From: a virus
Reading direction: 5' to 3' (one strand)
Virus record (IMG/VR): IMGVR_UViG_3300045988_183245
DNA: 64,000 bases
Position numbers and translations under genes: made by a program. The notes below the pieces were generated by a model, which saw nothing but the letters and a program-made list of their open reading frames with translations, did not search any database and had not been told where the DNA came from. Shown piece by piece: positions 20,995-56,005 of the stretch; positions within the stretch are counted from its first letter, which is position 1, and each line of letters begins with the position of its first letter.

Positions 20995-20996
20995 CA

Positions 20997-21959: not shown

Positions 21960-22289
21960 CAAAAACTAATAATTGCTGGTCAACACAACTGTATAAGATT
22001 GAAAACACAATAGTCTGCCTCTTGTTAATACGTTGCAAGTGAGAACCTGCGGGACTACAAAAGTGATGCACTATGCCACATATGATTGAAACGATATTTT
22101 GCTATGGTGCGGAAATGCAGCGGCTGCAGGTAACACAACTGCCGTAAGAAAGGCTACAAAGCGGCCCATGAGGTCGCGTAAGATTATGCGCCCATCTGCA
22201 AACGCGGGTGGACGTTTTTTTTTGCCAAAAATAAAACGTGATAAAAACCTTGCACATCTGTGCGAATCAGATATAATAGCCCTAATAAG

Positions 22290-23695
22290 ATAAAAATTGT
22301 GCCCTGACGGCATCTGAATTGGATGCTGCCGGGGCATTTTGTTTGTTAAGGAGAATTTGGGGCTATTCAACTTTTTCCGGGGGTCTGAATAACTCATGAG
22401 CACAAAAGTCCATAAAGGAGGTGAGCCACTTTGAAAGTACATAAAGGCTATAAATTTCGGCTAGAGCCAACAGAAGAACAGAAAGTCAAAATCAATAAAA
22501 CGCTCGGCTGCTGCCGTTTTGTATATAACTCTATGCTAGATAGGCGTATAAAAGCTTATCAACGGCGCGGTGAAAGTATGAGCTATATTGATACACAAAA
22601 TCTGCTTCCTCAGATGAAAACTTATCTTCCTTGGCTTGCTGAAGTAGATAGTCAAGCACTCAAATATAGCTGTCGTCAGTTAAATAATGCCTATAAAGGC
22701 TTTTTCGAAGACGGTAAAGGGTTCCCCCAATTCAAACGAAAACGGGGAGAAGAAAGCTATACAACTACAAAAGCAAAAAGCATTAAAGTTGACGATAAGT
22801 ACATTCAGCTTCCGACACTTGGGAAGATGCGTTATCGTAAGAGTCGCAACATTGAGGGACGCATCTGTAAGGCAACAATCCGTCGCTCAGCAAGCGGCAA
22901 ATACTATGTAAGTATTCTTTGCGAAGTAGAAGTAATGCCGCTTCCGGTTAAAGATACCGTCATCGGTTTAGATGTTGGCATCAAATCTTTTGCTGTTGAC
23001 AGCAATGGAAAAGAATATCCAAACAATAAATATCTTCAGAAAGCGGAAGCTAAACTAAAGCGTGAGCAGAAAAAGCTGTCACGCAAAAAGAAAGGTTCTG
23101 CCAACTGGGAGAAGCAACGTATCAAGGTAGCTTGCTGCCACGAAAAAGTGACCAATAAGCGAAAAGATGCCCTACACAAGTTGTCATCTACACTGGTGAA
23201 AGAAAACCAAATCATCTGTGTAGAAGACCTCAATGTAAATGGTATGGTTCGCAATCATAACCTTGCTAAAAGTATTTCCGATGTTTCTTGGGGAGAGTTC
23301 TTCCGACAACTTGATTATAAATCCAGTTGGGCAGGAAGAGTAGTTGTAAAAATACCAACCTTCTATCCAAGCAGCCAGACCTGCTCTTGCTGCGGCTACC
23401 AAAACAAAGAGGTAAAAAACCTCAATGTTCGGCATTGGGTCTGTCCGAAATGTAACACATCACACGATAGGGATAAAAATGCAGCAGAAAACATTCTAAA
23501 GAAAGGAATGGACATGCTGGCTACGCCAGCCGCCTCATAACCACAGGCGAACAGTACGGTCAGGACGACCGAATCTTAAAGTCTGTGGAGAGCGAGCCTC
23601 TATCAAGAGCTGCGGCTTGCGGTAAGCTCGCTCTATGAAGCAGAAATCCATACTGAGTAACGGGGCAATCCGTGAAAAGTTGGAAGTCCGAATTT
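22290..23695 (+). mobile_element. IS200/IS605-family tnpB-only element (IS1341-like) inserted between cas7 and the helicase gene
   Basis: An imperfect LE-type hairpin gacggcatc-tgaattg-gatgctgcc lies at about 22300-22335. An intact tnpB follows, then a structured 3' non-coding region (candidate omega-RNA) at 23541-23690. Confidence 0.6.
22431..23540 (+). CDS. tnpB: TnpB (IS605 OrfB family, RuvC-like nuclease with zinc finger)
   Basis: GLDVGIK (RuvC-I), ICVEDLN (RuvC-II), CSCCGY...CPKCN zinc finger, and [10 protein letters not shown] (RuvC-III). Confidence 0.85.
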
Positions 23696-26420
23696 GGCTA
23701 TGACACTGAACAACTTGTCAAGCGAACAACAGAAATTCGTACATTTGGCATTGTCGGGCAAAAACGTATTGTGTGACGCCTGCATCGGCAGCGGAAAAAC
23801 ATCAACTATCAACGTACTCTGCGATGCATATCCGCCGGAACGGCGTATTTTGTACTTGACCTACAACCGATTACTCAAACTTGATGCCAAAGACAAAATC
23901 AAGAATGGCAATGTCCTGGTTCAGAACTATCATGGATTTGCAAGCCTGCTGCTGAACAAAAAGGGAATCCGGAATTGCGGACAAGGCGAACAGCTTGCCA
24001 TGGTATTGGAAAAGAAAATTCCGATTCCGCCGATTGATACTCTTATCATTGACGAGTATCAGGATATCAATGACGAGATTGCAGAACTGCTCAAATATAT
24101 CCGCTCTCAGAATCCCGGTCTACAAATCGTCGCTGTGGGCGATATGAAGCAGAAAATCTACGATGATACAGCGTTGGATGTCTGGACATTCATGCAGGAT
24201 TTCCTCGGCCGCCATGAACAAGTGATTTTCACAAAGTGTTTCCGTATTTCCCATGACTTGGCAGAACGGCTTGGCAATATCTGGGGTAAGACCATCAACG
24301 GCGTAAATAGCTCCTGTATCGTGGAACAGATGTCGGTCGATGAAGTGACAGAGTTCCTGAATAAGCAGAACCCCAAAAATGTCCTTTGCCTGGGTGCTCG
24401 AATTGGAGCCATGACGAAGGTGCTCAACGACTTGGAGAATCGACCGGGGAACCTCTATGACAAGCATCATGTCTATGCAAGTATCGCAGACAATGATGGG
24501 AATAAGGCAGTAGCACCCTCCTCGGATGTTGGTATCTTTACGACTTTTGACGGCAGCAAAGGTATGGAGCGGCCTATCTGCGTTGTGTTTGATTTCACGG
24601 AAGAATACTGGTCGTCTCGCACAAGCAAACCGATGGCACGATATGAGATTCTTCGGAATCTGTTTTGTGTCGCAGCAAGCCGAGGAAAGCAGCGAATCAT
24701 TTTCGTAAACTCAGACCATCCGTTGAGCGATAAATCTCTGATGACCCCAACTGAAACTCTTCGCGGATTTCCGCATCCGTTCGCATTTTCTGAGATGTTT
24801 GACCATAAATTCATCGAGGATGTAGATGCCTGCTATAAGCTGTTGGAAGTCACACCGATTGAACGTAATGATACCACGACCATTGATATCCAGACGGCAG
24901 ATGCAATGATTGATTTGTCTCCCTGCATCAGCATCTACATGCAGGCAGGATTCTTTAATTCCTACGATATAGATGACGTACTTGCGTATTACATGGACCT
25001 GCATAAAGACATGCAGTATTTGAAAATCAAGAAGGGCGCAACGGTCGAGGATAAGGTTCTACTACTCACAGCACTCGAAACGAATCAGTGCAGGTATGTA
25101 AAACAGGTCAAGCCTCCTTTTGTGAACGCAAAAGCCAAAATGTCGCTCAGTATGCGGCTTGGAACCGTGTTCACTCCCGATGAATATGTTCAGGCACGCG
25201 GCGATATCGACATTCATACTAAGGACCATAAAGTGATTTATACCTCGGGCCTTGCGGATGTCGTAAAGAATAATACCGTCTACTGCATCAAGTTCATCAG
25301 CAGCCTGGCACATAAGCATTTTCTGCAGTGTGCGTGTTCCATGATAGCATTGGGGCTGCCATATGGCGTTGTATGGAACGTCAAAAGTAACCTGATGTAC
25401 AGCGTGAAAATCAAGGATATAGACGCTCTGATTGACGCAATTACCAAGTGCATTACGAAACGGGTTTATGATAGCGCAGATGACTACACCTGCAGGAAAG
25501 GTTTTGTACAGGATACTGCGTCGATTATCGACCGATGGACTGACGACGGATATGCGGAAGAGGCCACCACTATCACTTCCGGCGACGGTATTGCCATCAT
25601 CAAGCAAGGAAGCCGCTATTTTGTGATGGACGGAGCACGTCGAAACACCCTGAACGATAATTTTGGGCTTGGTTTTGCCGATGTAAAAGATGCTTGCCTT
25701 GCTTATGCAAAGAGTTGTGAACTCCAGAAAATCGTGGACCATGATTCTCCTTATTCCGAAGTCGAATTCTGGCTCGACCAGAACAAGGCGTTTGAGGAAT
25801 ACATGACGCAGGTAAGCCATGAAATCGAACAGCACAAGGAAGGACCGTATGCAAAATACAAGTCTTTCGCCGCTCCCGCTGTCCGAAAGATGCTGGCTGA
25901 AAAGGGACTGACCATCACGTTCCCGGAAAAAGTCCTCATCAAGGTTTGGAAGATGCGCCGTGTCGAAGATGCCATGTATCAGAAAATCGAAGAAGCAAAG
26001 AAGCAGAACAGCCCCAACGTACCTCTTGATGAGGCGTTCTTTGACTCTGAACTGGTGGATTCCGTTGAGGGAAGCATCGAAAGCGCCAAGGCAAAATCCA
26101 AGCCCAAAAAGGAATCCGCATTACCGTTTTCCAAGTACGGCGCAGATGAGAAGAAGAGCTATCGTGTCGTGAAAAGCGATGAACTCTCAAAGCCCAACCA
26201 GCCCCGTTATGTTGTGGTCGAGGCCGCAACTGATAAGGTCTTGGACAACGCTAACGGATACGGATACCTCTCCTATCAGGCTGCCTGGAAAGGGTATTCG
26301 TACAAGAGCAAGCATCATCTGGATGGGGCAAAGAAGCCTATGAGCAAGAGCGCAAAAGAACGGGCTAAGAAAAAGGCAGCTTTCTTCTCGACCGATTCGG
26401 AACAGCTCAGTTTCGGCTGA
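23694..26420 (+). CDS. UvrD/Rep-like SF1 helicase N-terminal core with a roughly 550-aa C-terminal extension of unknown function
   Basis: Walker A DACIGSGKTST, motif II DEYQDIN, and an N-terminal FVHLA...G.N arrangement typical of UvrD. The C-terminal half is unassigned; GDIDIH...VYCIKF is only a weak nuclease-like pattern. Confidence 0.6.
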   Translation: MAMTLNNLSSEQQKFVHLALSGKNVLCDACIGSGKTSTINVLCDAYPPERRILYLTYNRLLKLDAKDKIKNGNVLVQNYHGFASLLLNKKGIRNCGQGEQLAMVLEKKIPIPPIDTLIIDEYQDINDEIAELLKYIRSQNPGLQIVAVGDMKQKIYDDTALDVWTFMQDFLGRHEQVIFTKCFRISHDLAERLGNIWGKTINGVNSSCIVEQMSVDEVTEFLNKQNPKNVLCLGARIGAMTKVLNDLENRPGNLYDKHHVYASIADNDGNKAVAPSSDVGIFTTFDGSKGMERPICVVFDFTEEYWSSRTSKPMARYEILRNLFCVAASRGKQRIIFVNSDHPLSDKSLMTPTETLRGFPHPFAFSEMFDHKFIEDVDACYKLLEVTPIERNDTTTIDIQTADAMIDLSPCISIYMQAGFFNSYDIDDVLAYYMDLHKDMQYLKIKKGATVEDKVLLLTALETNQCRYVKQVKPPFVNAKAKMSLSMRLGTVFTPDEYVQARGDIDIHTKDHKVIYTSGLADVVKNNTVYCIKFISSLAHKHFLQCACSMIALGLPYGVVWNVKSNLMYSVKIKDIDALIDAITKCITKRVYDSADDYTCRKGFVQDTASIIDRWTDDGYAEEATTITSGDGIAIIKQGSRYFVMDGARRNTLNDNFGLGFADVKDACLAYAKSCELQKIVDHDSPYSEVEFWLDQNKAFEEYMTQVSHEIEQHKEGPYAKYKSFAAPAVRKMLAEKGLTITFPEKVLIKVWKMRRVEDAMYQKIEEAKKQNSPNVPLDEAFFDSELVDSVEGSIESAKAKSKPKKESALPFSKYGADEKKSYRVVKSDELSKPNQPRYVVVEAATDKVLDNANGYGYLSYQAAWKGYSYKSKHHLDGAKKPMSKSAKERAKKKAAFFSTDSEQLSFG

Positions 26421-34103: not shown

Positions 34104-34844
34104 ATGCGTATTTATAGCGCAAACAACGTATTCATAGAAGTTACGCGCCGATGCAATATGTGCTGTGCGCACTGCCTGCGCGGAGATGCCGAAAGCATCG
34201 ATATTCAGGAGAAGTACATCGATGCTTTTCTCGACAACTTTGAGAAGGGAGCTTATATCAGCTCTCTTACCTTTACCGGTGGGGAAATCTCTCTGAATAT
34301 ACCGGCAATTCGATACACCTTGAAAGCTGTCAAAGAGCGCGGTATCGCCGTTGGAAGCTTTTACATGGTCACTAACGGAAAAGCTGTCGATAAGATGGCT
34401 GACCTTGCTATGGCGAGTCTGGAGTGGTGGGCCTACTGCGATGAAAAAGATGACTATATGTGCGGTCTTTGCATCAGCAGTGATAACTTCCACGAAGTAA
34501 TCCCGTATGAAAGTAAAAGTATCCTTAGTGGCTTGAAATATAACCGTAACGATAAGGTAACGGACTTTCATCTGGCTTATTTACTGAACGAAGGGCGTGC
34601 TAAGAATCTCGATTCGAATATCTATAAGAAGCGTGAACCTCATGTAGACAAGCTCGAATACGAATTCAACAAAACCGGCGATATCGACTTTTACAGCGGC
34701 GAGCTGTACTTGAACGCCATCGGTGATGTCGTTTCCGGCTGTGATTGGTCCTACAAGTCGCAGAAGAAATATCGTTTTGGTAATGTAATGAACAAAAACT
34801 GGCTGGAGAACATTTCCAACAGCGAGTTGTACATTGCAAGCTAA
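34104..34844 (+). CDS. radical SAM domain protein (small; NrdG/QueE-like)
   Basis: CNMCCAHC gives the Cx3Cx2C cluster, and TFTGGEISL is a GGE SAM-binding motif. Confidence 0.55.
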   Translation: MRIYSANNVFIEVTRRCNMCCAHCLRGDAESIDIQEKYIDAFLDNFEKGAYISSLTFTGGEISLNIPAIRYTLKAVKERGIAVGSFYMVTNGKAVDKMADLAMASLEWWAYCDEKDDYMCGLCISSDNFHEVIPYESKSILSGLKYNRNDKVTDFHLAYLLNEGRAKNLDSNIYKKREPHVDKLEYEFNKTGDIDFYSGELYLNAIGDVVSGCDWSYKSQKKYRFGNVMNKNWLENISNSELYIAS

Positions 34845-45212: not shown

Positions 45213-45413
45213 ATGGTAACGTTTCTTGATGATGATGATATCGAACTAAAGCCTTGCCCGTTCTGTGGTTCTACAGCCGGGTTATATGCAAGCTATGAAG
45301 GCATGTATGCAGTGCGGTGCAACTACTGCCGCATCGGAACTGTCCTCATAAAAAACGAACAGGACGCGATTGAGTTGTGGAATCACAGAACGGAGGTAAC
45401 GAACGATAACTAA
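45213..45413 (+). CDS. lar: Lar-family restriction-alleviation zinc-ribbon protein
   Basis: 66 aa with LKPCPFCGS...C..C, characteristic of Lar. Confidence 0.6.
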   Translation: MVTFLDDDDIELKPCPFCGSTAGLYASYEGMYAVRCNYCRIGTVLIKNEQDAIELWNHRTEVTNDN

Positions 45414-45432: not shown

Positions 45433-46245
45433 TTGCGCCCATCATACTGGGCAAGCGTATCTGGCGGAAAAGATAGCCTGTATATGCTCAATTACATACT
45501 GCACAATCTGGACAGATACCCGCTTGACGGCGTGGTTCACTTTGAACTCGAAATCGACTACCCGTTTATACATAACGTTATCGACTATATGGAAACGGAG
45601 TGCAAGCGAGCTGGCATCCAATTTGTGCGAATCAAGCCGAGGAAAACGTGGGAAGAATTGTATGATAAATGCGGTTTCCCAACAAGAAAAGTAAGATGGT
45701 GTAACGGTCACTATAAACTTGATGCAAAGCGGCAACTATCCGAATGGCTGAACGAAGTCGGTTTTTATGTAGTAAATTACATAGGCTATTGTGCCGACGA
45801 AGAACGCCGTTTCAACAAGCGGTTGAGTGCCAAAAAGTTAGAGATATACCCTCTCGCAGAAAACGGCATTAACGAAGATGTGATTTTGGAATGGGCAAAG
45901 ACACAGCCTATTTTCAACAACTACTACAAAACCAACAAGCGCTGCGGTTGTATGTATTGCCCGATGTCCTCGTTTCTTAACTTTGCCTATCTCTATAAAT
46001 ACTACCCCGAAAATTTCCGGTATATGCTTGAAAAAATGCGGGAAACGGAAGAATTGAGAGAGAAAGAGCTTGGTAGACCGTTCTCTGTGATTTCATCGAA
46101 TCCCAAATATAATGCGGATTACTTGGAACACATCGTCAAAACGAAATGGCTCAAAAAGCTCAACGAAATGGAGGTAACCAACAATGACTATGTCGATGCG
46201 TATTGCGTCGGTGTGGATGTGGATGGTCACACCACTGTCCACTAG
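45433..46245 (+). CDS. PAPS reductase / PP-loop family protein (phage-type)
   Basis: N-terminal SGGKDS PP-loop motif and a C-terminal Cys cluster CGCMYCP. Confidence 0.65.
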   Translation: MRPSYWASVSGGKDSLYMLNYILHNLDRYPLDGVVHFELEIDYPFIHNVIDYMETECKRAGIQFVRIKPRKTWEELYDKCGFPTRKVRWCNGHYKLDAKRQLSEWLNEVGFYVVNYIGYCADEERRFNKRLSAKKLEIYPLAENGINEDVILEWAKTQPIFNNYYKTNKRCGCMYCPMSSFLNFAYLYKYYPENFRYMLEKMRETEELREKELGRPFSVISSNPKYNADYLEHIVKTKWLKKLNEMEVTNNDYVDAYCVGVDVDGHTTVH

Positions 46246-47285: not shown

Positions 47286-47379
47286 TGCGCTTGCCCCAAC
47301 CACTAGATATAGTGGTATCTTAATGTTTGTTTACAATTTAGACACTATATATTGTGTCTTTTCATTGACCGGATACCAC

Positions 47380-47430
47380 ATATATGGTATAATACAATTG
47401 TTCTCAGGAAGAGGAACGGCTCCTGAGACA
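47380..47430 (+). promoter_or_regulatory. extended -10 promoter (TGGTATAAT) plus an 8-bp-stem hairpin, upstream of the tRNA island leader
   Basis: tggtataat at about 47385, then tctcagga-agaggaacggc-tcctgaga. Confidence 0.4.
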
Positions 47431-47638
47431 TCAAGGTTTTCCTTTCCCCAATCTTGGTCGCATGGCTTCATTTGAGCTGACACAGGTGAAGCGTGAAAAT
47501 CATCCGTTTCATAGTAATATCCTTCCTTTCTTTGGCGCGGGTAACTCCGCGCCAGCCGTCCAAGCAAACAGCCTCCACGCGGCGGACGGTGGGCAACAGA
47601 TGTTTCCGTGTTCCGGGCATCTGGCTAATGTTTGTATT

Positions 47639-47714
47639 TGCTGGTTTAGCTCAGCTGGTAGAGCAACTGACCTGTAATCAGTCGGTCATCGGTTCAAGTC
47701 CGATTTCCAGCTCC
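47639..47714 (+). tRNA. tRNA, anticodon loop CCTGTAA (putative TGT / Thr); atypical
   Basis: Cloverleaf with D-arm gctcagctggtagagc and T-arm atcgg-ttcaagt-ccgat, CCA encoded. There are two U-U mismatches at the base of the acceptor stem, and C33. Confidence 0.5.
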
Positions 47715-48540
47715 AGACGCTATCCGTTGGATGTATCGAAATCACATGATACGATGCTATACACAACATCTGGCGGACAGCATGCCACCCATTAAGGCGG
47801 CCTCCTCGTGGCGGGTGGCGGACAGCGGCTCTTGCGGCTGCTGACGAATGTCTTAGAAGCATGCAAACGTACGAGCATCCCCGTCAAGTCGGGGCGCATC
47901 CAGACGCGACACAGCCGTAAAGGCGAGATTGCTGCACGGCAACTGGTAAGTTTCGCCGCAGTCTCACACACAGCCCAACGACAACCGTTAACCCGATTTG
48001 ACAGGGAATCAACGACAGGGCTCAAAATTTGAAGTTGACCAACACCCAAGCGCTTTCTTGGATTCTCGCGTATCGTCAACGATGAGGTTCGCAAGATTGT
48101 CAGGTGGTGTGAAGATGACATCCGGGGATGACGACCTACTAAACGGATGTCATGGCGGGGCTAAGTGAGGGTTCACCCGCAATCTTATGCAGGTATCGTA
48201 TAACGGCTAATACTCCGCCCCTCCAAGGCGGAGACGCGGGCTCGACCCCCGCTACTTGCTCCACACGTCGCCGCCACCGTACGCCACGACATTAAATTTG
48301 GCGAGCATGGTCCACATGTGGTCCGCTGTCCGAATGCCAATGGACAGCCTATAAAAGAATAGGCAAACAGGTGCTGTGCCTGAGAGTATCCGAGAGTCCC
48401 GGTGTCAGTCGCGAATGAGGCCGGAAAACGGCGGGGAGGGTACTATACAGAATCCGTCGGCGTGGCTGCTGAATGGTACTGGAAGAAAGGGTTGGCTGCC
48501 CTGATTGCGGGATGATAACCAGTATAAAACATCCTAACAT

Positions 48541-48616
48541 GCCTGATTAGCTCAGTTGGTAGAGCAGCGCATTCGTAACGCGCAGGTCGGCAGTTCGAAC
48601 CTGCCATCAAGCCCCA
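48541..48616 (+). tRNA. tRNA-Thr (CGT)
   Basis: Acceptor gcctgat / atcaagc, D-arm gctcagttggtagagc, anticodon loop ttCGTaa, T-arm ggcag-ttcgaac-ctgcc, CCA encoded. Confidence 0.6.
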
Positions 48617-48654
48617 TCACCAAATTAAGCGATAATAGGAAGGAGATGAATTCT

Positions 48655-49038
48655 ATGGAACAGGCAATTATCAATGTTGAAGGTACGACTACCATAGAAA
48701 CCGCTGCAGCAGCCAAAAAGCTGATTGGGATGCTTGGCAATCAGAACGTCCGCGCCATCTCGGTCAATCGTGTGAACGATAAGAGCGATGAGGTCATTGT
48801 CGAACTTGATTTCGTGCCTGGCTTGGCACCGCATCTGCACGGCTTTACACTTCAGGTTAATGGCTTGACCTGTGGTTATGCTGGTACTGGTCCTTCCAAT
48901 CTGTATGAAGTCCTGCAGGCGGCTGGCGTGAGTGAAGCTCAGGTAGCACGCGAGGACATCACTCAGAAGAGCACAAAAACCATTCCTCTGCGCCTGGAAC
49001 GCGCCGTGACTCAGTACGGCGACTTCCAATTTGCGTAA
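48655..49038 (+). CDS. hypothetical protein (127 aa)
   Basis: RBS aggaagga upstream of MEQAIINVEG. The longer ORF would overlap the tRNA. A hairpin ggcgggcttaacccgcc follows the stop. Confidence 0.5.
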   Translation: MEQAIINVEGTTTIETAAAAKKLIGMLGNQNVRAISVNRVNDKSDEVIVELDFVPGLAPHLHGFTLQVNGLTCGYAGTGPSNLYEVLQAAGVSEAQVAREDITQKSTKTIPLRLERAVTQYGDFQFA

Positions 49039-49068
49039 CGCTATTTGGCGGGCTTAACCCGCCATCAT

Positions 49069-49144
49069 GGAGGGATAGCTTAGCTGGATAAAGCACCTGC
49101 CGCAAAGCAGGGTATCGATGGTTCGAGGCCATCTCCCTTCTCCA
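49069..49144 (+). tRNA. tRNA-like gene with an aberrant anticodon arm (possible pseudo-tRNA)
   Basis: Acceptor, D and T arms are good (ggaggga / tcccttc; gatgg-ttcgagg-ccatc; CCA). The anticodon arm only pairs as cctgc-cgcaaa-gcagg, giving a 6-nt loop. Confidence 0.35.
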
Positions 49145-49506
49145 TCCAGACACCCTTTCGCTTCCTTCCGCCAAAGGTATCTGGGGTATTGTACTGCATT
49201 GCGTGTAGTACGGCCAATCAGGCGCGGAACTCCGAAACCATACCACGAAGAATTTTATCCTCTCCGCGCAGCATGGACATGCGATTTTACGGGGATAAAT
49301 TCAAACCGAAATTGTGTCGAGTGGCGAAGACGGTTGCGGCACTGGCGAAGCACATATCTGCTTCGTCAACCATCCATGAGAAAGCCTCCACGCGGCGGAT
49401 GGTGGGCAACGCAGCAAAGCTGCGGCTGATTTCTCCTTAAATCGGTATCTGAATAAATGCAGATAGATAATCACAAAAAAATTAAAAGAACAAAGGAGTA
49501 CACAGC

Positions 49507-50640
49507 ATGAGCAATCAGAAAATCATGAAAGCAATCGCAGGGATTGCAGCAGCCGGTATGATGGCAACTTGTCTGCCTGTCGCAGCGTTCGCAGCCACCG
49601 GTGACACCTACCATTTCTCTTTCAGCAATGGTTCTTCCCAGGACCTGGCTCCGGGCGGTTCTATGACGTTCCCGGCAAGTCAGTATGACTACGGCTACTG
49701 GATTACCCTGCAAGGCCATGGCGGGTATACCTACAACTACTATCCCGGCGACACTCTGCCGTACGATGCAGTTGACCAGTGGTTCACCACTGACGGCATC
49801 ACTTCCTGCTATGCGGCTGAGGGCAATCCGCGTTCCATCACCATCAACTACCAGATTGACGGCAACACGGTGCTGACCGAGACTGACACCGCCACTTTCC
49901 CGGGCAGTGTTGATGGTCAGAGTGTTGAAGCCTGGACCACGGATTCCGGTGATACTTACACCGCATCCAGCAAGAGCCTGAACCATGACCGCCTGTTCTA
50001 CTACCTGGGCGACGACATCCACGACAACGTCCTGACCCTGAAAGCCACTTCTGCATCCACTCCCGACGACGGCAAGGATGACAACAAGGGCGATGACAAG
50101 GGTGATGTTACCAAACCCGACGATAAGGACGACAACACTGGTGACAATACCGGTGACAACGGCACCACCACTCCTGATGACAAGGGCGACGTTGTGGCTC
50201 CTGATAAGGGCAACACCGGCAAAGACAACACTTCTACCGGCTCCAATAAGGGTAACGGTACTACCACCACTACTCCGACCGCTCCTCGCAAAAACGTTGA
50301 GGTTTCTGAACATGGTGAAATTGCCGCCGCTATTGCCAATGGCACCTGGGGCAATGAGTACACCGTCTGTACCAGCTGTGGCTATCACAACTGGACCCGC
50401 AAGGGTAACGTTTACGTCTGTGACCATTGTGGTCATGAAGTCCTGACTGTTAAGGGCGCTGATGGCGTCAAGGGCTATGCTGGTACTCTGGCTGGCAACG
50501 AGCCCCAGTACGCTTCTACCTCTGAAGCTCAGGCTGCTGCTGAAAAGCGTGAAGCCGCTTATGCCGCTTCCATCGCTGCTCTGCAGGCACAGGTTGCCGC
50601 TCGTGAAGCTGCTTATGCCGCTTCCCTGGGCATCCACTAA
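49507..50640 (+). CDS. secreted Thr/Asp/Gly-rich repeat protein with a C-terminal zinc-ribbon-like CxxC..CxxC
   Basis: Signal peptide MKAIAGIAAAGMMATCLPVAAFAA; repeats D(D)KG(D/N)..; CTSCGYHNW...CDHCGHE. The antisense 388-aa ORF is rejected. Confidence 0.6.
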   Translation: MSNQKIMKAIAGIAAAGMMATCLPVAAFAATGDTYHFSFSNGSSQDLAPGGSMTFPASQYDYGYWITLQGHGGYTYNYYPGDTLPYDAVDQWFTTDGITSCYAAEGNPRSITINYQIDGNTVLTETDTATFPGSVDGQSVEAWTTDSGDTYTASSKSLNHDRLFYYLGDDIHDNVLTLKATSASTPDDGKDDNKGDDKGDVTKPDDKDDNTGDNTGDNGTTTPDDKGDVVAPDKGNTGKDNTSTGSNKGNGTTTTTPTAPRKNVEVSEHGEIAAAIANGTWGNEYTVCTSCGYHNWTRKGNVYVCDHCGHEVLTVKGADGVKGYAGTLAGNEPQYASTSEAQAAAEKREAAYAASIAALQAQVAAREAAYAASLGIH

Positions 50641-50723
50641 TTTGCCATCCTCTAACTAACGGTAATCGATAGTTTTTTCTCCTTGCTGTGGGGCGGGATT
50701 TCGGTCCCGCCCCATCCTTTTGT

Positions 50724-50811
50724 GGTCAGATGTCCGAGTGGTTTAAGGAACTGGTCTTGAAAACCAGCGACGCCGCAAACGTCCGTGGGTTCAAATCCCA
50801 CTCTGACCGCC
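50724..50811 (+). tRNA. tRNA-Ser (TGA)
   Basis: Class II tRNA: acceptor ggtcaga / tctgacc, anticodon loop ctTGAaa, long variable arm, T-arm gtggg-ttcaaat-cccac, CCA encoded. A terminator gccggggtttcccggcTTTTT follows. Confidence 0.7.
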
Positions 50812-51199
50812 AAATTTTTGCCGGGGTTTCCCGGCTTTTTGTTTTTGTGAGCAACACAAGGCAACAGATTGCTATATCGAATAGGGTTATGTATACAACT
50901 GGAGCGTCAAAAGGAAAAGCACGAGGACTCCCGTTCTGGAAACAACGAATGGTTCTGCTGAAATCAAGGTGCCAATCGACCTGGCTTTGGCTGACTATGA
51001 GTCCAGGATGGCTGAGCCTTTAAGCGAGTTGTGTTCGTGTGAGGACATACCGTTCTCGAATGCAATAGCGCGGATTGCTGCTTGGAGACCGGTCAAACAA
51101 TGAGTGCGGGCCTGCCATTATTTTTACGAAAAGCCTTGACTTTGACTTTTACATATTGTATAATTAAGACGCTGAATTTGATGAAAGGAAAATTGCACG

Positions 51200-51301
51200 A
51201 TGTTTGCTGCTATGATGAACAAACAGAATAAATTGCAAAAGCTGTGGAGCAATTGGAATCTCTTCGGCTGTTTTTGTGTTGTCTGTTTGTGCAAATCATA
51301 G
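51200..51301 (+). CDS. possible small Cys-rich hydrophobic peptide (33 aa)
   Basis: MFAAMMNKQNKLQKLWSNWNLFGCFCVVCLCKS. It lies downstream of a strong sigma-A-like promoter TTGACT-17-TATAAT (about 51140-51170) and an RBS aaagga. Confidence 0.3.
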   Translation: MFAAMMNKQNKLQKLWSNWNLFGCFCVVCLCKS

Positions 51302-51469
51302 TACAGTGATGGTTGAATAAAATCAGCCAAGTATCGGTTGTTTTCCGCACTCTGCACGATATGAGCACCTGTCAGACACACAACGCCTGATGGGTGCTTT
51401 TTTGATGCAGAAAATCAGAATCAGGTCACTCTAATGCCGCTGGAGTGAATTCCAGCCAGGCTTATTAAA

Positions 51470-51850
51470 GTGTATGCTATTATACAGAATGTATATTCGA
51501 GGATTCGCCAAACGGTAAGGCATCAGGCTTTGACAAACGAAACAGAACAATCGCTAAAAGAGTCTCTGCAGCAGACCGCCGAAACCATAAAAATCAATAT
51601 TGTAGAAATGGAATGCATGCCTGACCATATTCACCTGTTGGTGGAGTGTTCACCGCAGCATTTTATCCCGGATATGATAAAAGTGCTTAAAGGCAACAGT
51701 GCAAGAGCTATTTTTATCGCCAATCCGGACTTGAAGAAGCAACTTTTGGGCGGGCATCTTTGGAACCCAAGCTACTTTATTGCAACCGCCAGTGATAACA
51801 CGCGCAAACAAGTACAAGAATACATTGCATCTCAAAAAATAAGAAACTGA
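51470..51850 (+). pseudogene. tnpA: tnpA (IS200-type Y1 transposase), N-terminally truncated (GTG start; the first beta-strand is missing)
   Basis: Has the HUH motif MPDHIHLLV and WNPSYFIATAS, but no upstream in-frame sequence for the conserved N-terminal strand (a stop lies 5 codons upstream). Confidence 0.55.
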
Positions 51851-51868
51851 TGAAATGGGGGCTTCGCA

Positions 51869-53200
51869 GTGGAAATCACTTCCAGCTATGCTGTGGAAAT
51901 CAAAAAGCAGAAAATGTTCGACAATACTATAAAGATTTATCGCGAAGCCGTTTCTTTCTTGATTGGTTGTTTTAACAAAGAATGGGATTCTATTCAAAAA
52001 GTAGAGGGTGCCAAATCTCGAAAGAGTTTTGCCGAGAAGTTAATTCATACTACAAAATACAGCACTGCTAAATATGATTTCGATGCCAAGTTTTATAAGT
52101 TCCCTAGTTACCTGCGCAGAGCGGCTATTCAAGCAGCACTCGGCTCTGTAAGCAGCTACTACAGTAGCCATAAGAACTGGGAAGCAAACGGCAAGGTTGA
52201 CAGGGAGCCAAAACTTCAATGCGATAGATTTTGCTTCCCGGCTTTTTATAAGACCGTTATGTATGAGGAAAGCAACAAACCAAACCAGTGCTATCTGAAG
52301 CTGTATAAAAACAATGACTGGGTTTGGATTCCTATTGCAATGCGTGCCACCGATGTCAAATACATCACGAAATACTGGTCACATTGCGAAAAGAGTGCTC
52401 CCTCCCTCGAAAAGAAGTATGGAAAATATTTTCTTCGCTTCGCTTTCGTGGAGAAGGTAGAACTCTCTGAAACTGAAATTCAAGACAGGCGTATCTGCGC
52501 TGTAGACCTTGGCCTCAATACTGACGCCGTGTGCAGCATCATGACTGCCGATGGAACTGTCCTTGCAAGAAAATTTATCAATTTTGCAAGTGAAAAAGAC
52601 CATCTGTATCATGTGCTCAACCGTATTAAGCGTAAGCAAAGAGAACATGGACCTAAGAGTGCTGCTGCTATGTGGCGTTACGCCAAAGCCTTGAATAACG
52701 ATATAGCGAAAAAGGTTGCTGCTGCGATTACTGAATTTGCTGTGCTTTATTCTGTAGATGTGATTGTTTTTGAACATTTGTCATTTACAGGCAAAAAGCA
52801 CGGTGGCAGTAAGGCACAGAAGCTGTCGATGTGGAAGCGTAATTCTATACAGGATTATGTGGAACACAAGGCGCACCGCTGCGGTATCCGGATTTCGCGT
52901 ATCTGTGCTTGGGGGACAAGCAAACTCGCCTTTGATGGCAGTGGTGCTCTCAAGCGTGATGAAACCAATCGTGCCCTTGCAACGTTTGCAAGCGGCAAAC
53001 AATACAACTGCGACCTAAGTGCGAGCTACAATATTGGCGCTCGCTACTTTGTCAGAGAGTTGCTAAAACCCTTGCCAGCGATGGTAAGGTCTCAGCTTTC
53101 GGCTAATGTTCCGGATGTTGAGCGTAGAATCCAAGTTACACTTGCCACGCTTAAAGTTCTGTATCCTGAGCTTAAAAAACTCAGTACACAGGCAGCGTAA
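51869..53200 (+). CDS. tnpB: TnpB-like RuvC-fold protein with a degenerate zinc finger (443 aa)
   Basis: AVDLGLNT (RuvC-I), VIVFEHL (RuvC-II), WGTSK...CDLSASYNIGARYF (RuvC-III analogue). There is no CxxC pair. Confidence 0.6.
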   Translation: MEITSSYAVEIKKQKMFDNTIKIYREAVSFLIGCFNKEWDSIQKVEGAKSRKSFAEKLIHTTKYSTAKYDFDAKFYKFPSYLRRAAIQAALGSVSSYYSSHKNWEANGKVDREPKLQCDRFCFPAFYKTVMYEESNKPNQCYLKLYKNNDWVWIPIAMRATDVKYITKYWSHCEKSAPSLEKKYGKYFLRFAFVEKVELSETEIQDRRICAVDLGLNTDAVCSIMTADGTVLARKFINFASEKDHLYHVLNRIKRKQREHGPKSAAAMWRYAKALNNDIAKKVAAAITEFAVLYSVDVIVFEHLSFTGKKHGGSKAQKLSMWKRNSIQDYVEHKAHRCGIRISRICAWGTSKLAFDGSGALKRDETNRALATFASGKQYNCDLSASYNIGARYFVRELLKPLPAMVRSQLSANVPDVERRIQVTLATLKVLYPELKKLSTQAA

Positions 53201-53464
53201 GATGTAGGCTAACTGTGACAATTAGCTTTCTTGCGGTGAGTTTGTTCTTCGGGACTTGCTTGCTGAGGGATTGCTGTACCATTTCGTTAGCAAGTTCCTC
53301 TCCTTAAAAGAAGGGAAGCCCGCGACTTTAGTCGTGGGAGGATTCACCCTGACAACGGTTGTTCGACTCGACCATTCTCGACCAACGCTCACTTTCATGC
53401 GCATCGGAAGTGAGATTCCTCAAAGCTGTGTTCCCATAAGCAAGGCACGGAAGATGCGCGACAA

Positions 53465-53541
53465 GTGCTCGTAACTCAATCGGTAGAGTACCCGACTTTT
53501 AATCGGGGTGTTCGGGATTCGATTTCCCGCGAGCGCACCAT
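53465..53541 (+). tRNA. tRNA-Lys (TTT)
   Basis: Anticodon arm cccga-ctTTTaa-tcggg, T-arm cggga-ttcgatt-tcccg, CCA encoded. Confidence 0.7.
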
Positions 53542-53571
53542 GCCCGGCAGAGCATTATCTGCCACTTTTGT

Positions 53572-53647
53572 GGGTGTATAGCTCAGTAGGCAGAGCGGCG
53601 GACCGTTAATCCGTTTGTCGCAGGTTCAAATCCTGCTACGCCCGCCA
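53572..53647 (+). tRNA. tRNA-Asn (GTT)
   Basis: Anticodon loop ccGTTaa, D-arm gctcagtaggcagagc, CCA encoded. Confidence 0.7.
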
Positions 53648-53650
53648 TAA

Positions 53651-53728
53651 GCTCCTCTGGTGAAATTGGCAGACACAGTGCGCTCAAACCGCACCGTTTT
53701 GAGGGTTCGAATCCCTCGGGGAGTACCA
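53651..53728 (+). tRNA. atypical tRNA, anticodon CAA (Leu-like D-arm but short variable arm)
   Basis: D-arm tggtgaaattggcagacac resembles tRNA-Leu; anticodon arm gtgcg-ctCAAac-cgcac. The variable region is only about 6 nt, and there is no class II extra arm. Confidence 0.45.
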
Positions 53729-53757
53729 TGTCCGACAGTACAACAACTGCCATTTAT

Positions 53758-53833
53758 GGGTTGTTAGCTCAGCTGGTAGAGCAACGGACCGTTAATCCGT
53801 GGGCCGCAGGTTCGAATCCTGCACAACCTGCCA
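53758..53833 (+). tRNA. tRNA-Asn (GTT), second copy
   Basis: gctcagctggtagagc D-arm, loop ccGTTaa, CCA encoded. Confidence 0.7.
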
Positions 53834-53836
53834 TAT

Positions 53837-53911
53837 GCTCCAGTGGCGAAACTGGCAAACGCGGCGGATTTAAGCTCCGCTTATTTCTGAGTTCGACTCT
53901 CAGCTGGAGCA
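53837..53911 (+). tRNA. atypical tRNA, anticodon TAA (Leu-like, short variable arm, no encoded CCA)
   Basis: Acceptor gctccag / ctggagc, anticodon arm gcgga-ttTAAgc-tccgc, T-arm ctgag-ttcgact-ctcag. The variable region is about 6 nt. Confidence 0.45.
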
Positions 53912-53918
53912 TCCATAT

Positions 53919-53984
53919 AGGGGTGTAGCTCAATTGGTAGAGCAGCGGTCTCCAAAACCGCTTGTTGCATGTTCGAGTCGTGTT
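53919..53984 (+). tRNA. tRNA-Trp (CCA)
   Basis: Anticodon arm gcggt-ctCCAaa-accgc, D-arm gctcaattggtagagc, CCA encoded. A terminator agccgtcc...gggcggcTTTTTT follows at 54009-54042. Confidence 0.65.
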
Positions 53985-54359
53985 ACCCCTGCCACAATAA
54001 GAAAAGCCGTCCTTTTGAGGGCGGCTTTTTTGCTTTGGAGAGTATACAGACCAAAAACTAAACTACAAGTTGATTGCAAATGTGCAAAAACATGCTATAA
54101 TAATATCAGAACGAAACGAAAGGAGATACCCCAAAATGCTGTGCAACACTGTTAATGTAATGTCGTATGAGTATAGTTATGAATCTGAGTTCAGCTCTTA
54201 TGAACGCAGTTTTATTTCTCATACTCCTCGACAGGCAAAAACAGACCATGTACAGATGCGGTGCGTCTTCTAAGCGATAACTGCATTTTCACACGCTGCT
54301 TGTCGAGATTTCGGCAGGCAGCTTTTTTGTTGCCTGCAATACAGAAAGGCAGCGAAAAA

Positions 54360-54581
54360 ATGAACGTTCCAACCATCGATATCCAGCAGACAGGTGCCAA
54401 TATCAAGGCCCTGCGAAAAGCAGCAGGCATCAAGGTGAAGGATGTGGCAGACACGCTCGGTGTGTCTCCGCAGGCGGTTGCTAAATGGCAAGCCGGAACA
54501 GCGCTTCCCACCATCGATAACCTTGTGATATTAGCAGCGATGCTCGATACGAAAATTGATGACATCCTTGTCATCGCATAA
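54360..54581 (+). CDS. XRE-family HTH transcriptional regulator (73 aa)
   Basis: IKALRKAAGIKVKDVADTLGVSPQAVAKWQAG is a classic Cro/C1-type HTH. Confidence 0.65.
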   Translation: MNVPTIDIQQTGANIKALRKAAGIKVKDVADTLGVSPQAVAKWQAGTALPTIDNLVILAAMLDTKIDDILVIA

Positions 54582-54610
54582 ACCCTCGCCGCAGGATTGC
54601 GGCTTTATAT

Positions 54611-54690
54611 GGCCCGTTGGACGAATTGGTAGAGTTGCCGCCCTTTCACGGCGGAGATTATTGTGGGTTCGAAACCCACACGGGTCACCA
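54611..54690 (+). tRNA. tRNA-Glu (TTC)
   Basis: Anticodon arm ccgcc-ctTTCac-ggcgg, T-arm gtggg-ttcgaaa-cccac, CCA encoded. Confidence 0.65.
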
Positions 54691-54693
54691 TCT

Positions 54694-54770
54694 GCTTCTG
54701 TAGCTCAGTTGGTAGAGCAGCGGTCTGAAGAACCGCGTGTCGCTGGTTCGATTCCAGCCGGGAGCACCAT
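54694..54770 (+). tRNA. tRNA-Phe (GAA)
   Basis: D-arm gctcagttggtagagc, anticodon arm gcggt-ctGAAga-accgc, CCA encoded. Confidence 0.7.
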
Positions 54771-54772
54771 AT

Positions 54773-54857
54773 GTGCCGGTATGCAAGTGGTTAAAGCAAA
54801 CGGTCTGTAAAACCGCTCCGTTACGGTTCGCTGGTTCGAATCCAGCCCGGCACACCA
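54773..54857 (+). tRNA. tRNA-Tyr (GTA)
   Basis: Class II tRNA with anticodon loop ctGTAaa and a long variable arm; acceptor gtgccgg / ccggcac, CCA encoded. Confidence 0.7.
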
Positions 54858-54860
54858 TAA

Positions 54861-54934
54861 GGCCCCTTCGACAAGTTGGTCCAAGTCGCCAGCCTCTCAA
54901 GCTGGAGTCGGCAGTTCGAGTCTGCCAGGGGTCA
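54861..54934 (+). tRNA. tRNA, anticodon CTC (Glu-like); no encoded CCA
   Basis: Anticodon arm ccagc-ctCTCaa-gctgg, T-arm ggcag-ttcgagt-ctgcc, acceptor ggcccct / aggggtc. Confidence 0.5.
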
Positions 54935-54965
54935 TACAAGCACCTATGTCAAAAAGGTGCATCAT

Positions 54966-55055
54966 GCAGAGGTCGCCTAACGGTAGGGCAGCAGCTTGCT
55001 AAGCTGCCGTCGCGGAAATCGCGGCATGTGAGTTCGAATCTCACCCTCTGCGCCA
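54966..55055 (+). tRNA. tRNA-Ser (GCT)
   Basis: Class II tRNA: anticodon arm cagc-ttGCTaa-gctg, long variable arm, acceptor gcagagg / cctctgc, CCA encoded. Confidence 0.7.
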
Positions 55056-55058
55056 TCT

Positions 55059-55146
55059 GCTTGCTTGTTCGAGTGGTTGATGAAATCGGTCCAGAAAACC
55101 GACGATGGGAGACTGTCCGAAGGTTCGAATCCTTCAGCAAGCGCCA
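55059..55146 (+). tRNA. class II tRNA, anticodon uncertain (loop CCAGAAA)
   Basis: Acceptor gcttgct / agcaagc, long variable arm, T-arm gaagg-ttcgaat-ccttc, CCA encoded. The anticodon loop has C33, so the isotype cannot be assigned. A terminator gccctca...tgagggcTTTTT follows at 55151-55195. Confidence 0.5.
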
Positions 55147-55505
55147 CTGCCCTCATTCTGTGCGGTATCCGTGCAGGTGAGGGCTTTTTCTTTTGCTTTT
55201 CGCTTCGAATTTCGGACTCGAATGGCGTTAATGGTCGGATATTCTTGATTATACATGCCTTTGCTGTATGGCAAATAGCTCCAAACAGTATTGGTTTTTA
55301 CACCCAATTCTTCTGCAATTTCAGGAACTGACATACCGTTCGCACGCAGCTTCCCGATTTTTTCTGATGTTTCATCTGACCATGCCCCGGCTGTAATCAG
55401 TATTTTGCGCACTTTCTGCAATGAGATGCCTGCACGTTTGGCAATGGTTCTTCTAGGTATACCTTGCTCATGGAGCCGGAGAACCGTCTGCATTGTCGCG
55501 TCCAT
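55134..55505 (-). CDS. HTH-repeat protein (two units)
   Basis: Two G(I/M)S..(K/E)IA...G(I/V)S...V motifs; same repeat family as the tandem-HTH genes. Confidence 0.5.
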   Translation of the reverse strand: MDATMQTVLRLHEQGIPRRTIAKRAGISLQKVRKILITAGAWSDETSEKIGKLRANGMSVPEIAEELGVKTNTVWSYLPYSKGMYNQEYPTINAIRVRNSKRKAKEKALTCTDTAQNEGSGAC

Positions 55506-55818: not shown

Positions 55819-56005
55819 ATTCCCCGGCCTTCGTTTGGTAAATCTAACGGCAGGATACTGCTCAAAGGTACAAATCCTTCAGCAAACGTCACAATCTCCA
55901 AAGTCAGCGATTGTTCGTAAATTTATGGGGGACTGCTTTCTTGTTTAGCACCACAATTTGTGATATAATAGCGAAAGAAAACAATGAATAATGGAGTGCC
56001 ATAAA

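Follow-up and report, generated by a model that had tools for sequence, protein, structure and literature searches.

A tRNA gene island with short-arm tRNA-Leu genes, unusual anticodon loops and predicted HDV-like ribozymes in a gut-metagenome viral element

Results

Gene content of the island

The present analysis concerns a dense island of tRNA genes in the IMG/VR virus record IMGVR_UViG_3300045988_183245, of which a stretch of 64,000 nucleotides (referred to as the window) was analysed. ARAGORN predicted 17 tRNA genes in the window, all on the plus strand and all within 47640-55146: five at 47640-50812, six at 53465-53994 and six at 54611-55146 (Table 1). The initial annotation, made from the sequence alone, had reported about 12 genes in two clusters, which is exactly the number that ARAGORN found there. 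It placed the start of the first cluster correctly (53465) and its end too early (53984 instead of 53994), and the additional genes that it saw upstream are indeed present, five in number rather than four.

The Rfam tRNA covariance model (RF00005, gathering score 29 bits) recovered 16 of the 17 genes at 47.6-69 bits, and the gene at 49069 at 46.4 bits, the latter with relaxed filters only. Since the scores of 46-69 bits lie well above the gathering score and the E-values range from 1e-7 to 1e-13, chance can be excluded as the origin of these matches. As a refutation of its reading, the initial annotation had named covariance models that assign standard isotypes or structures or score the genes as pseudogenes. 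The covariance model did neither, and the non-canonical geometry is real. A segment-by-segment parse of the genes showed that 15 of the 17 tRNAs encode the terminal CCA, the two without it in the standard reading being Leu(UAA) and Glu(CUC). The possibility that the genes form a recoding or suppressor set was rejected: ARAGORN found no CTA, TCA or TTA anticodon, and the open reading frames (ORFs) are long under translation table 11.

Table 1. Coordinates of the tRNA genes, predicted ribozymes, putative transcription signals and inserted element, in window positions.
Feature	Position	Strand	Remarks
Terminator-like hairpin	47340-47359		directly before the promoter-like site at 47365
Promoter-like site	47365-47393	+	TTGACC-17-TATAAT, extended -10 TG; consensus scan only
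HDV-like ribozyme Rz1 (predicted)	47555-47635	+	RF02682, 50 bits (gathering score 44)
tRNA-Thr(UGU)	47640-47715	+	loop CCTGTAA (C33); U6.U67 and U7.U66; CCA encoded
HDV-like ribozyme Rz2 (predicted)	47784-47855	+	RF02682, 34.1 bits, E=0.0005, below gathering score; diverged copy
tRNA-Gly(UCC)	48189-48263	+	loop CCTCCAA (C33); T loop CTCGACC
tRNA-Thr(CGU)	48541-48616	+	one acceptor-stem mismatch; A31.C39 mismatch
Cys-like tRNA	49069-49144	+	GCA within 6-nt anticodon loop CGCAAA; U73
HDV-like ribozyme Rz3 (predicted)	49369-49436	+	RF02682, 41.7 bits, E=4e-5, below gathering score; short P4
tRNA-Ser(UGA)	50724-50812	+	long-arm type
Terminator-like hairpin	50820-50835		after Ser(UGA)
tRNA-Gln(UUG), 5' half	51498-51534	+	ends TTGAC (anticodon plus A37 C38)
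IS200/IS605 element	51535-53347	+	TnpA within 51470-51850, TnpB 51869-53200
tRNA-Gln(UUG), 3' half	53348-53384	+	
tRNA-Lys(UUU)	53465-53540	+	canonical
tRNA-Asn(GUU), no. 1	53572-53647	+	loop CCGTTAA (C33)
tRNA-Leu(CAA), type I	53651-53728	+	variable region CGTTTT (6 nt); A73; G1.U72; CCA encoded; 48.6 bits
tRNA-Asn(GUU), no. 2	53758-53833	+	loop CCGTTAA (C33)
tRNA-Leu(UAA), type I	53836-53915	+	variable region TTATTT (6 nt); 55.9 bits
tRNA-Trp(CCA)	53919-53994	+	ARAGORN and parse
Hairpin and T-run	54006-54031		after Trp; sequence reading
tRNA-Glu(UUC), atypical	54611-54690	+	Leu-like D arm; 8-nt variable region; A73
tRNA-Phe(GAA)	54694-54769	+	canonical
tRNA-Tyr(GUA)	54773-54857	+	long-arm type, 13 nt
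tRNA-Glu(CUC)	54861-54934	+	A73; CCA not encoded
tRNA-Ser(GCU)	54966-55055	+	long-arm type
tRNA-Ser(AGA)	55059-55146	+	loop CCAGAAA (C33, A34); 16-nt variable arm; G73; 47.6 bits
Hairpin and T-run	~55149-55194		after Ser(AGA)

Short-arm tRNA-Leu genes

The two tRNA-Leu genes depart from the expected tRNA structure. The Leu-type D arm and the variable region of about 6 nt that the initial annotation had described for the genes at 53651 (CAA) and 53837 (TAA) were recovered in the parse: in each of them a 3-bp D stem closes an 11-nt Leu-type D loop, and the variable region measures 6 nt. Both are therefore type I tRNA-Leu genes, in that they combine a Leu anticodon with a variable region of about 5 nt. 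The boundaries of Leu(UAA) can be read in two ways. With a 7-bp acceptor stem the gene spans 53837-53911, has A73 and does not encode CCA; the alternative given by ARAGORN has an 8-bp acceptor stem, followed by U and then by CCA.

The two Leu genes are paralogues that lie within a tandem duplication of 186 bp (53567-53713 and 53753-53899, 71% identity). It is this duplication of an Asn-Leu unit that produced both Asn(C33) genes and both type I Leu genes. Between the two copies the Leu anticodon has switched, either from CAA to UAA or in the opposite direction.

Further members were sought with a DNA pattern, biased to one type of D arm, in which a D arm of Leu type had to be followed by a UUR-type anticodon loop and, at the spacing of type I, by the T loop. 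The pattern matched 83 stretches of IMG/VR viral contigs, mostly of 30-220 kb and from one large gut dataset, and the usual result was a pair of matches 186 nt apart, as in the window. Among 185,579 species-representative bacterial genomes there were 9 matching stretches, all inside other dense tRNA arrays, of Bacteroidota, Acidobacteriota, Myxococcota and candidate-phyla bacteria; one of these arrays holds five consecutive short-arm Leu genes. The pattern with type II spacing matched 53 other viral contigs, where 7 of the 82 Leu tRNAs reported by ARAGORN were 73-77 nt long. A distant search with the Leu gene returned solely longer phage Leu tRNAs, those of phi92 (86 nt) and Atuin (81 nt).

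Together, the phage contigs and the bacterial tRNA arrays yielded 40 distinct type I Leu sequences. Six Leu anticodons occur among them, and the variable region measures 4-6 nt (5-6 nt in 39 of the 40). U48, the last position of the variable region, is found in all 40, A73 in 39 and U8-G9 in 38. In an alignment of 28 of the sequences (A1) the columns T8, A14, G18 and G19 are invariant. The elements that are used by leucyl-tRNA synthetase (LeuRS), namely U8-A14, G18G19 in a Leu-type D loop, nucleotide 48 and, by the E. coli rule, A73, are thus in place. Moreover, the stems are paired in 98% of the cells of A1, and compensatory changes on both sides occur in 19 of the 20 base pairs and cover all four stems. 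The covariation score is 0.873, against an average of 0.21 for shuffled alignments (none of 500 reached the observed value) and at most 0.18 when the pairing partners were slid. The shared features are no artefact of the search pattern, because 15 of the 40 sequences entered the set solely as neighbours of a match, independently of the pattern, and A73 and U48 occur in every one of them.

At the same loci the long arm was lost in 40 of 43 distinct Leu tRNAs and kept in all 35 distinct Ser and all 17 distinct Tyr tRNAs, a distribution that agrees with the rules of the synthetases. Bacterial TyrRS uses the long arm. The arm is also reported to be important for the binding of SerRS (PMC11541572), whereas for a LeuRS a variable loop of 5 nt or more can be enough, provided that nucleotide 48 is part of it (PMC6614811). 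The fact that the arm is missing from Leu tRNAs only therefore indicates that the genes are constrained by aminoacylation, and hence would act in translation. Taken together, the sequence comparisons show a selected class of type I tRNA-Leu that recurs in phages and in tRNA arrays. This class has given up the long arm and has retained U8, A14, U48 and A73, along with G18G19 in the Leu-type D loop and at least 5 nt of variable loop.

C33, a missing U33 and other unusual features

In five of the 17 genes, Thr(UGU), Gly(UCC), both Asn(GUU) and Ser(AGA), the nucleotide at position 33 is C. One of these, the gene at 55059, had been described before as a class II tRNA with loop CCAGAAA and C33, and as such it was found; the accompanying remark that its anticodon loop is unassignable was wrong. 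The loop has the normal 7 nt and sits on a perfect 5-bp stem, so that the anticodon can be assigned as AGA, and the 16-nt variable arm and G73 make the tRNA Ser-like; the oddities that are left are C33 and A34. The other four C33 tRNAs and the tRNA without U33 at 49069 had not been noticed, nor had the split tRNA-Gln and the three predicted ribozymes described below. The two U-U pairs that the initial annotation saw in the acceptor stem of the first gene of the island (47639 in its numbering) were confirmed in Thr(UGU) as U6.U67 and U7.U66.

The Cys-like tRNA has a loop, CGCAAA, that equals the usual CTGCAAA minus U33. In line with this, ARAGORN reported a 2-base anticodon and the Rfam alignment has one deletion in the loop. 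Of 51 related copies 49 are identical to that of the window, and the other two differ at a few positions each.

In the comparison with relatives, the window alleles of two genes are in the minority: most relatives have TTTGTAA instead of CCTGTAA in the anticodon loop of Thr(UGU), and 45 relatives have TTCGACC where the T loop of Gly(UCC) in the window reads CTCGACC (C54). C33 is retained in a strongly diverged Gly homologue (L091) and in both of the diverged Asn paralogues. Furthermore, the oddest genes are the least polymorphic. The canonical neighbours Phe and Tyr have a nucleotide diversity (pi) among relatives of 0.052 and 0.055, respectively, whereas the value is 0.0005 for the Cys-like gene (49 same-length copies), 0.0016 for Gly(UCC), 0.0045 for Leu(CAA) and 0.0057 for Ser(AGA). 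Conservation and covariation thus show the odd genes, including the structurally deviant ones, as maintained by selection and not as decayed copies, where the evidence for the other odd genes is weaker than that for Leu.

Some further peculiarities were observed. The gene for Glu(UUC) looks chimeric, with a Glu-like acceptor stem and anticodon arm and a D arm that is Leu-like (GAC GAATTGGTAGA GTT). A degenerate copy of the 3' half of Ser(AGA), of 74% identity, is located at 55840-55892, 745 nt downstream of the gene, with a small helix-turn-helix (HTH) gene and a hairpin that resembles an insertion sequence (IS) end in between; it may be the scar of an integration into the tRNA gene. Asn and Tyr tRNAs, of which the window has two and one, respectively, are normally modified with queuosine. 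The window also encodes a radical-SAM/4Fe-4S protein (34104-34844) and a PAPS-reductase-like PP-loop protein (45433-46245), which could be QueE-like and QueC-like proteins for deazaguanine modification.

Predicted ribozymes and transcription signals

The Rfam model RF02682 identified three candidate ribozymes in the upstream part of the island that resemble the ribozyme of hepatitis delta virus (HDV). The P1, P2 and P4 strands are complementary within each of them and different between them, and a C at the catalytic J4/2 position can be read in all three. Rz1 ends 4 nt before Thr(UGU) and has no tRNA gene upstream, Rz2 starts 69 nt after the end of Thr(UGU), and Rz3 begins 225 nt downstream of the Cys-like tRNA, with 70 nt between its end and the ORF at 49507-50640. 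A search with the core motif, which gave 49 matching stretches, and its application to the related loci indicated that these positions are conserved, that of Rz1 in about 53 loci, that of Rz2 in about 46, and that of Rz3 likewise by synteny. An Rfam E-value scan of the long spacers revealed no structured RNAs besides the ribozymes, and the fold z-scores of three spacer stretches are not compelling (-2.7 for 47856-48188, -0.8 for 48264-48540 and -2.0 for 49145-49368).

The promoter-like site at 47365-47393 is likely the start of the first transcript of the island. Elsewhere in the window an intergenic motif of about 40 nt, with core GTGCGAATTGCAKACAAT, is repeated upstream of many plus-strand genes (at 6891, 8778, 12214, 14802, 16013, 19147, 22250, 29306, 39654 and 43727) and looks like an element-specific promoter or operator.

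A tRNA-Gln gene split by an IS200/IS605 element

An eighteenth tRNA gene, for tRNA-Gln(UUG), is present as two 37-nt halves that are separated by an IS200/IS605 element in the anticodon loop. TnpA of the element was identified by its Y1_Tnp domain (Pfam, 1.7e-30), and the zinc-ribbon domain match of TnpB was weak. The junction falls exactly between TTGAC and CCTGAC of the tRNA and there is no target duplication, as is characteristic of this family. Related contigs (e.g. L001 and L002) have an intact 74-nt tRNA-Gln(UUG) just before tRNA-Lys.

The same split allele, including TnpB, occurs on several metagenome contigs (L128, L130 and L131). In seven related loci (L006 and L010 among them) the Gln body has TTC as its anticodon; it differs from TTG by one base, at position 36, and the anticodon has apparently shifted from Gln to Glu. 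On one contig (L129, 11517-12266) an extra gene for an HD-domain hydrolase (HD_4) separates Ser(UGA) from the IS element; an ORF occupies the corresponding site in L001, and the window has no HD_4 gene there. A sequence similar to the right end of IS605 (...CCCGCGACTTTAGTCGTGGG) has four copies in the window, at 3454, 34857, 43627 and 53302, and a hairpin has three (9146, 11672 and 55790), so that several IS605/TnpB elements or remnants are scattered over the window.

Relatives, genomic context and host

About 70 of the loci fetched from IMG/VR share the island and the gene order. ARAGORN reported 72 Leu(CAA), 68 Leu(UAA), 60 Ser(AGA), 50 tRNAs with a 6-nt loop and 50 Gln on all fetched loci. 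A look-up of exact proteins led to metagenome contigs, the longest of 130 kb, on which the gene order is unchanged and on which a Lar-like and an AcrVA2-like gene border the island. A close cultured phage relative was not found, as megablast matched a generic tRNA-Trp only. The idea of the initial annotation that the tRNA set is phage-encoded is supported, both by these roughly 70 island-bearing viral loci against 9 bacterial stretches, and by the homologues of the window proteins, which are found in phages of Bacillota only. The island itself is absent from the species-representative genomes and the host was not identified by this search; on the basis of the protein homologues it is probably a member of the Bacillota.

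The island is flanked by a Lar-like restriction-alleviation gene (about 45213-45413) and an AcrVA2-like gene (57298-58374), which suggests an accessory, anti-defence region. Other genes of the window include several IS605/TnpB copies, many HTH and Mor-like regulators, an AAA and VWA pair, and genes for a phage tail lysozyme domain, a PLD nuclease and a UvrD-like helicase. In addition, type I-C-like cas8c (Csd1, 1.7e-49) and cas7 (3.9e-53) genes, followed by a TnpB gene and a UvrD-like helicase gene, occupy 19516-26420. Cas3, Cas1 and a CRISPR array were not found within the window; beside the cas genes there is no tandem array, and a direct-repeat scan gave no regularly spaced repeat family.

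Discussion

The region of 47.4-55.2 kb is best explained as the tRNA gene island of a large gut-metagenome mobile element that is classed as viral by IMG/VR. The best explanation of its layout is that it ancestrally comprised 18 tRNA genes on one strand, organised in three to four transcription units between promoter-like and terminator-like sites. As to its function, we consider it reasonably probable that the odd tRNAs are selected, are released from their precursors by ribozymes, are charged by the host and serve the decoding of A/U-rich codons, with evasion of nucleases as the more speculative part of the proposal.

The codons served by the island are those for Lys, Asn, Phe, Tyr, Leu-UUR, Glu, Gln (the split gene), Ser-AGY/UCW, Thr-ACR, Gly-GGA, Trp and perhaps Cys. 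Summed over the counted codons, they make up about 40-44% of the codons in the ORFs of the window. Ala, Arg, Pro, Val, Leu-CUN and Gly-GGY have no tRNA in the island. Most likely, the island supplies decoders for A/U-rich codons. The omission of the G/C-rich families is the pattern that is expected if an A/T-richer element supplements a G/C-richer host.

In the mechanism that we propose, the tRNAs would be transcribed as polycistronic precursors, from which the ribozymes would cut the tRNA segments: Rz1 from a 155-nt leader, Rz2 from a long trailer and Rz3 from the mRNA of the downstream ORF (49507-50640). RNase P would then trim the 5' ends, and the 3' ends would be finished either by 3' exonucleases or by RNase Z and the CCA-adding enzyme. 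Host synthetases would charge the products, the Leu tRNAs receiving leucine and reading UUG and UUA, and in this way decoders for the A/U-rich codon families would be supplied during infection. More speculatively, the odd shapes may be poor substrates for nucleases or toxins that target tRNAs, so that translation could go on when the host tRNAs are depleted. The departures at issue are the absent long arm of Leu, C33 in Thr, Gly, both Asn and Ser, and the absent U33 in the Cys-like tRNA. This suggestion is based on analogy and on the anti-defence-like genes next to the island. For phage tRNAs with changes in the anticodon loop, an escape from anticodon nucleases has been proposed (van den Berg et al. 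2023, PMC10264068), and a precedent for a toxin that reads the long variable arm is MenT3, which does so on tRNA-Ser (PMC11541572). It is conceivable, if rather unlikely, that the principle is general and that phages and mobile arrays redesign their tRNAs into 'stealth' tRNAs wherever the synthetase allows it, deleting the long arm in Leu and never in Ser or Tyr, and replacing or deleting U33. Such tRNAs would remain active in translation and evade immune nucleases or toxins that recognise these universal features, with ribozymes making maturation partly independent of host endonucleases.

Several points weigh against this picture. Rz2 and Rz3 fall below the Rfam gathering threshold, and instead of the usual G1.U wobble a G1-C pair is formed in Rz2, and position 1 of Rz3 is A. 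Most of the related contigs are near-identical close kin, so that little independent evidence comes from seeing the Cys-like and Ser(AGA) genes conserved among them. Both C33 and a 6-nt loop are expected to weaken decoding. The analysis identified no nuclease that recognises the long arm of Leu or U33, and papers on bacterial Schlafen proteins gave no evidence for recognition of the long variable arm. Finally, charging by the LeuRS of the host is not guaranteed, because the type I tRNA-Leu of Streptomyces coelicolor is charged by its own enzyme (ScoLeuRS) and by human mitochondrial LeuRS, and the E. coli LeuRS fails on it (PMC6614811).

The decoding role might also suffice on its own. The island would then top up the decoders for A/U-rich codons, and the odd shapes would reflect neutral or slightly harmful drift for which the host tRNAs provide back-up. 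We regard this as possible, yet clearly less probable than the proposal above. The anticodon set is in fact skewed to A/U-rich codon families in a window with a GC content of 46.4%, structural deviance is widely reported for phage tRNAs, and few relatives share the C33 of Thr(UGU) or the C54 of Gly seen in the window. Drift should, however, not have removed the long arm from 40 of 43 distinct Leu tRNAs and from none of 52 distinct Ser or Tyr tRNAs, nor should it have left U48 invariant and A73 nearly so (39 of 40) in type I Leu. The retention of C33 in the diverged Gly and Asn genes and the low diversity of the oddest genes point in the same direction. A further point against compensation alone is that decoders of G-ending or single codons, namely Trp, Glu(CUC), Thr(CGU) and Leu(CAA), belong to the set as well.

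That some members of the island work outside normal decoding is improbable in our view. They could be decoys that soak up toxins, promote frameshifting or non-standard decoding (the tRNA with the 6-nt loop), or serve as attachment sites. Such roles would suit the 6-nt loop, which ARAGORN could read as a 2-base anticodon only, the degenerate copy of the 3' half of Ser(AGA) at 55840-55892, which is what integration into a tRNA gene would leave, and the Gln anticodon loop, which served as IS605 target. They are at odds with the lack of suppressor anticodons, with ORFs that are long and intact under the standard bacterial code, and with the preserved identity features of the acceptor end and the encoded CCA, as expected of tRNAs that are charged.

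Decay into pseudogenes or degenerating duplicates, which has been considered for type I Leu, Ser(AGA) with C33, the Cys-like 6-nt loop and Thr with its U.U pairs, is very improbable: near-universal rules are broken (U33, the 7-nt loop, the long arm of Leu) and one island gene, Gln, was truly destroyed by an IS, but the deviant genes score 46-56 bits on the covariance model, their diversity is below that of canonical neighbours, and for the Leu class, with its compensatory changes in all four stems, covariation and low diversity among relatives led us to reject this reading.

The favoured reading, that of selected tRNAs cut from ribozyme-bearing precursors, can be compared with several known systems. 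Phage tRNA clusters and long arrays that spread horizontally are well known (PMC10264068, PMC8421152). Like the island, those of the mycobacteriophages of cluster C1 (PMC10264068) and the bacterial L-arrays (PMC8421152) consist of many tightly packed tRNA genes on one strand of a mobile element. They too are supernumerary to the host set and contain deviant sequences, and they have been proposed to buffer tRNA depletion or codon bias. In contrast to these, the island is partial, with 18 genes for 14 amino acids, and it is interleaved with ORFs, an IS element and HDV-like ribozymes; its load of C33 (5 of 17 genes) is unusually high. The phage tRNAs that have been connected to nuclease resistance (PMC10264068) resemble those of the island in that loop positions next to the anticodon are off consensus while the anticodon and the stems are kept. 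In the island, however, it is the near-universal U33 that is replaced or deleted, and resistance is conjectural here. No paper was found that describes C33 or a loop without U33 in phage tRNAs, and with five C33 tRNAs and one U33-less tRNA clustered together, the U-turn nucleotide looks less invariant than has been assumed.

The predicted ribozymes would share the double-pseudoknot core of HDV-like ribozymes, with the catalytic C in J4/2, with the theta ribozymes (Kienbeck et al. 2024, PMC10879173) and with the Faecalibacterium prausnitzii family RF02682. Like the theta ribozymes they are found in gut viral contigs, within tRNA regions and on the tRNA strand, where self-cleavage is a prediction in the case of Rz1-Rz3. 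Theta ribozymes of gut phages have their cleavage site within 5 nt of a tRNA 3' end (PMC10879173). That arrangement was rejected for the window, since Rz1 is located directly 5' of a tRNA without a tRNA upstream, and the distance from the preceding tRNA is 69 nt for Rz2 and 225 nt for Rz3, outside a margin of ±5 nt. Unlike the theta loci, the island has no suppressor tRNA and shows no sign of recoding, and CCA is encoded in 15 of its 17 tRNAs, against 4.5% of the theta-associated tRNAs (PMC10879173). With Rz1-Rz3, the association of HDV-like ribozymes with phage tRNA regions would no longer be limited to the published 3'-end arrangement.

Type I tRNA-Leu as a class is not new, because it has been characterised in S. 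coelicolor and was noted in Mycobacterium, where a short-variable-loop tRNA-Leu(TAG) of a tRNA cluster is mentioned in passing (PMC6582537). For its recurrence in phages and arrays with six anticodons, an invariant U48 and strong covariation we found no description in the papers at hand. Known counterparts are the type I tRNA-Leu(CAA) of S. coelicolor (Fan et al. 2019, PMC6614811), animal mitochondrial tRNA-Leu and the tRNA-Leu(TAG) of Mycobacterium. They have in common with the Leu tRNAs described here that the anticodon is one for Leu, that the variable loop measures about 5 nt and that U8-A14 is kept, and the published minimum of 5 nt including nucleotide 48 (PMC6614811) agrees with the 5-6 nt found in 39 of the 40 sequences. 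The 40 sequences differ from the Streptomyces tRNA, which has C48, by their invariant U48. Their genes are located on phages and in tRNA arrays that come from five or more phyla, and they have six Leu anticodons. Type I tRNA-Leu used to be regarded as a rare form found in mitochondria and a few Streptomyces. Here it is recurrent, with covariation, across phages and the arrays of several phyla, and constitutes a natural test set for the recognition rules of LeuRS and for the idea that phage tRNAs are shaped by tRNA-targeting immunity.

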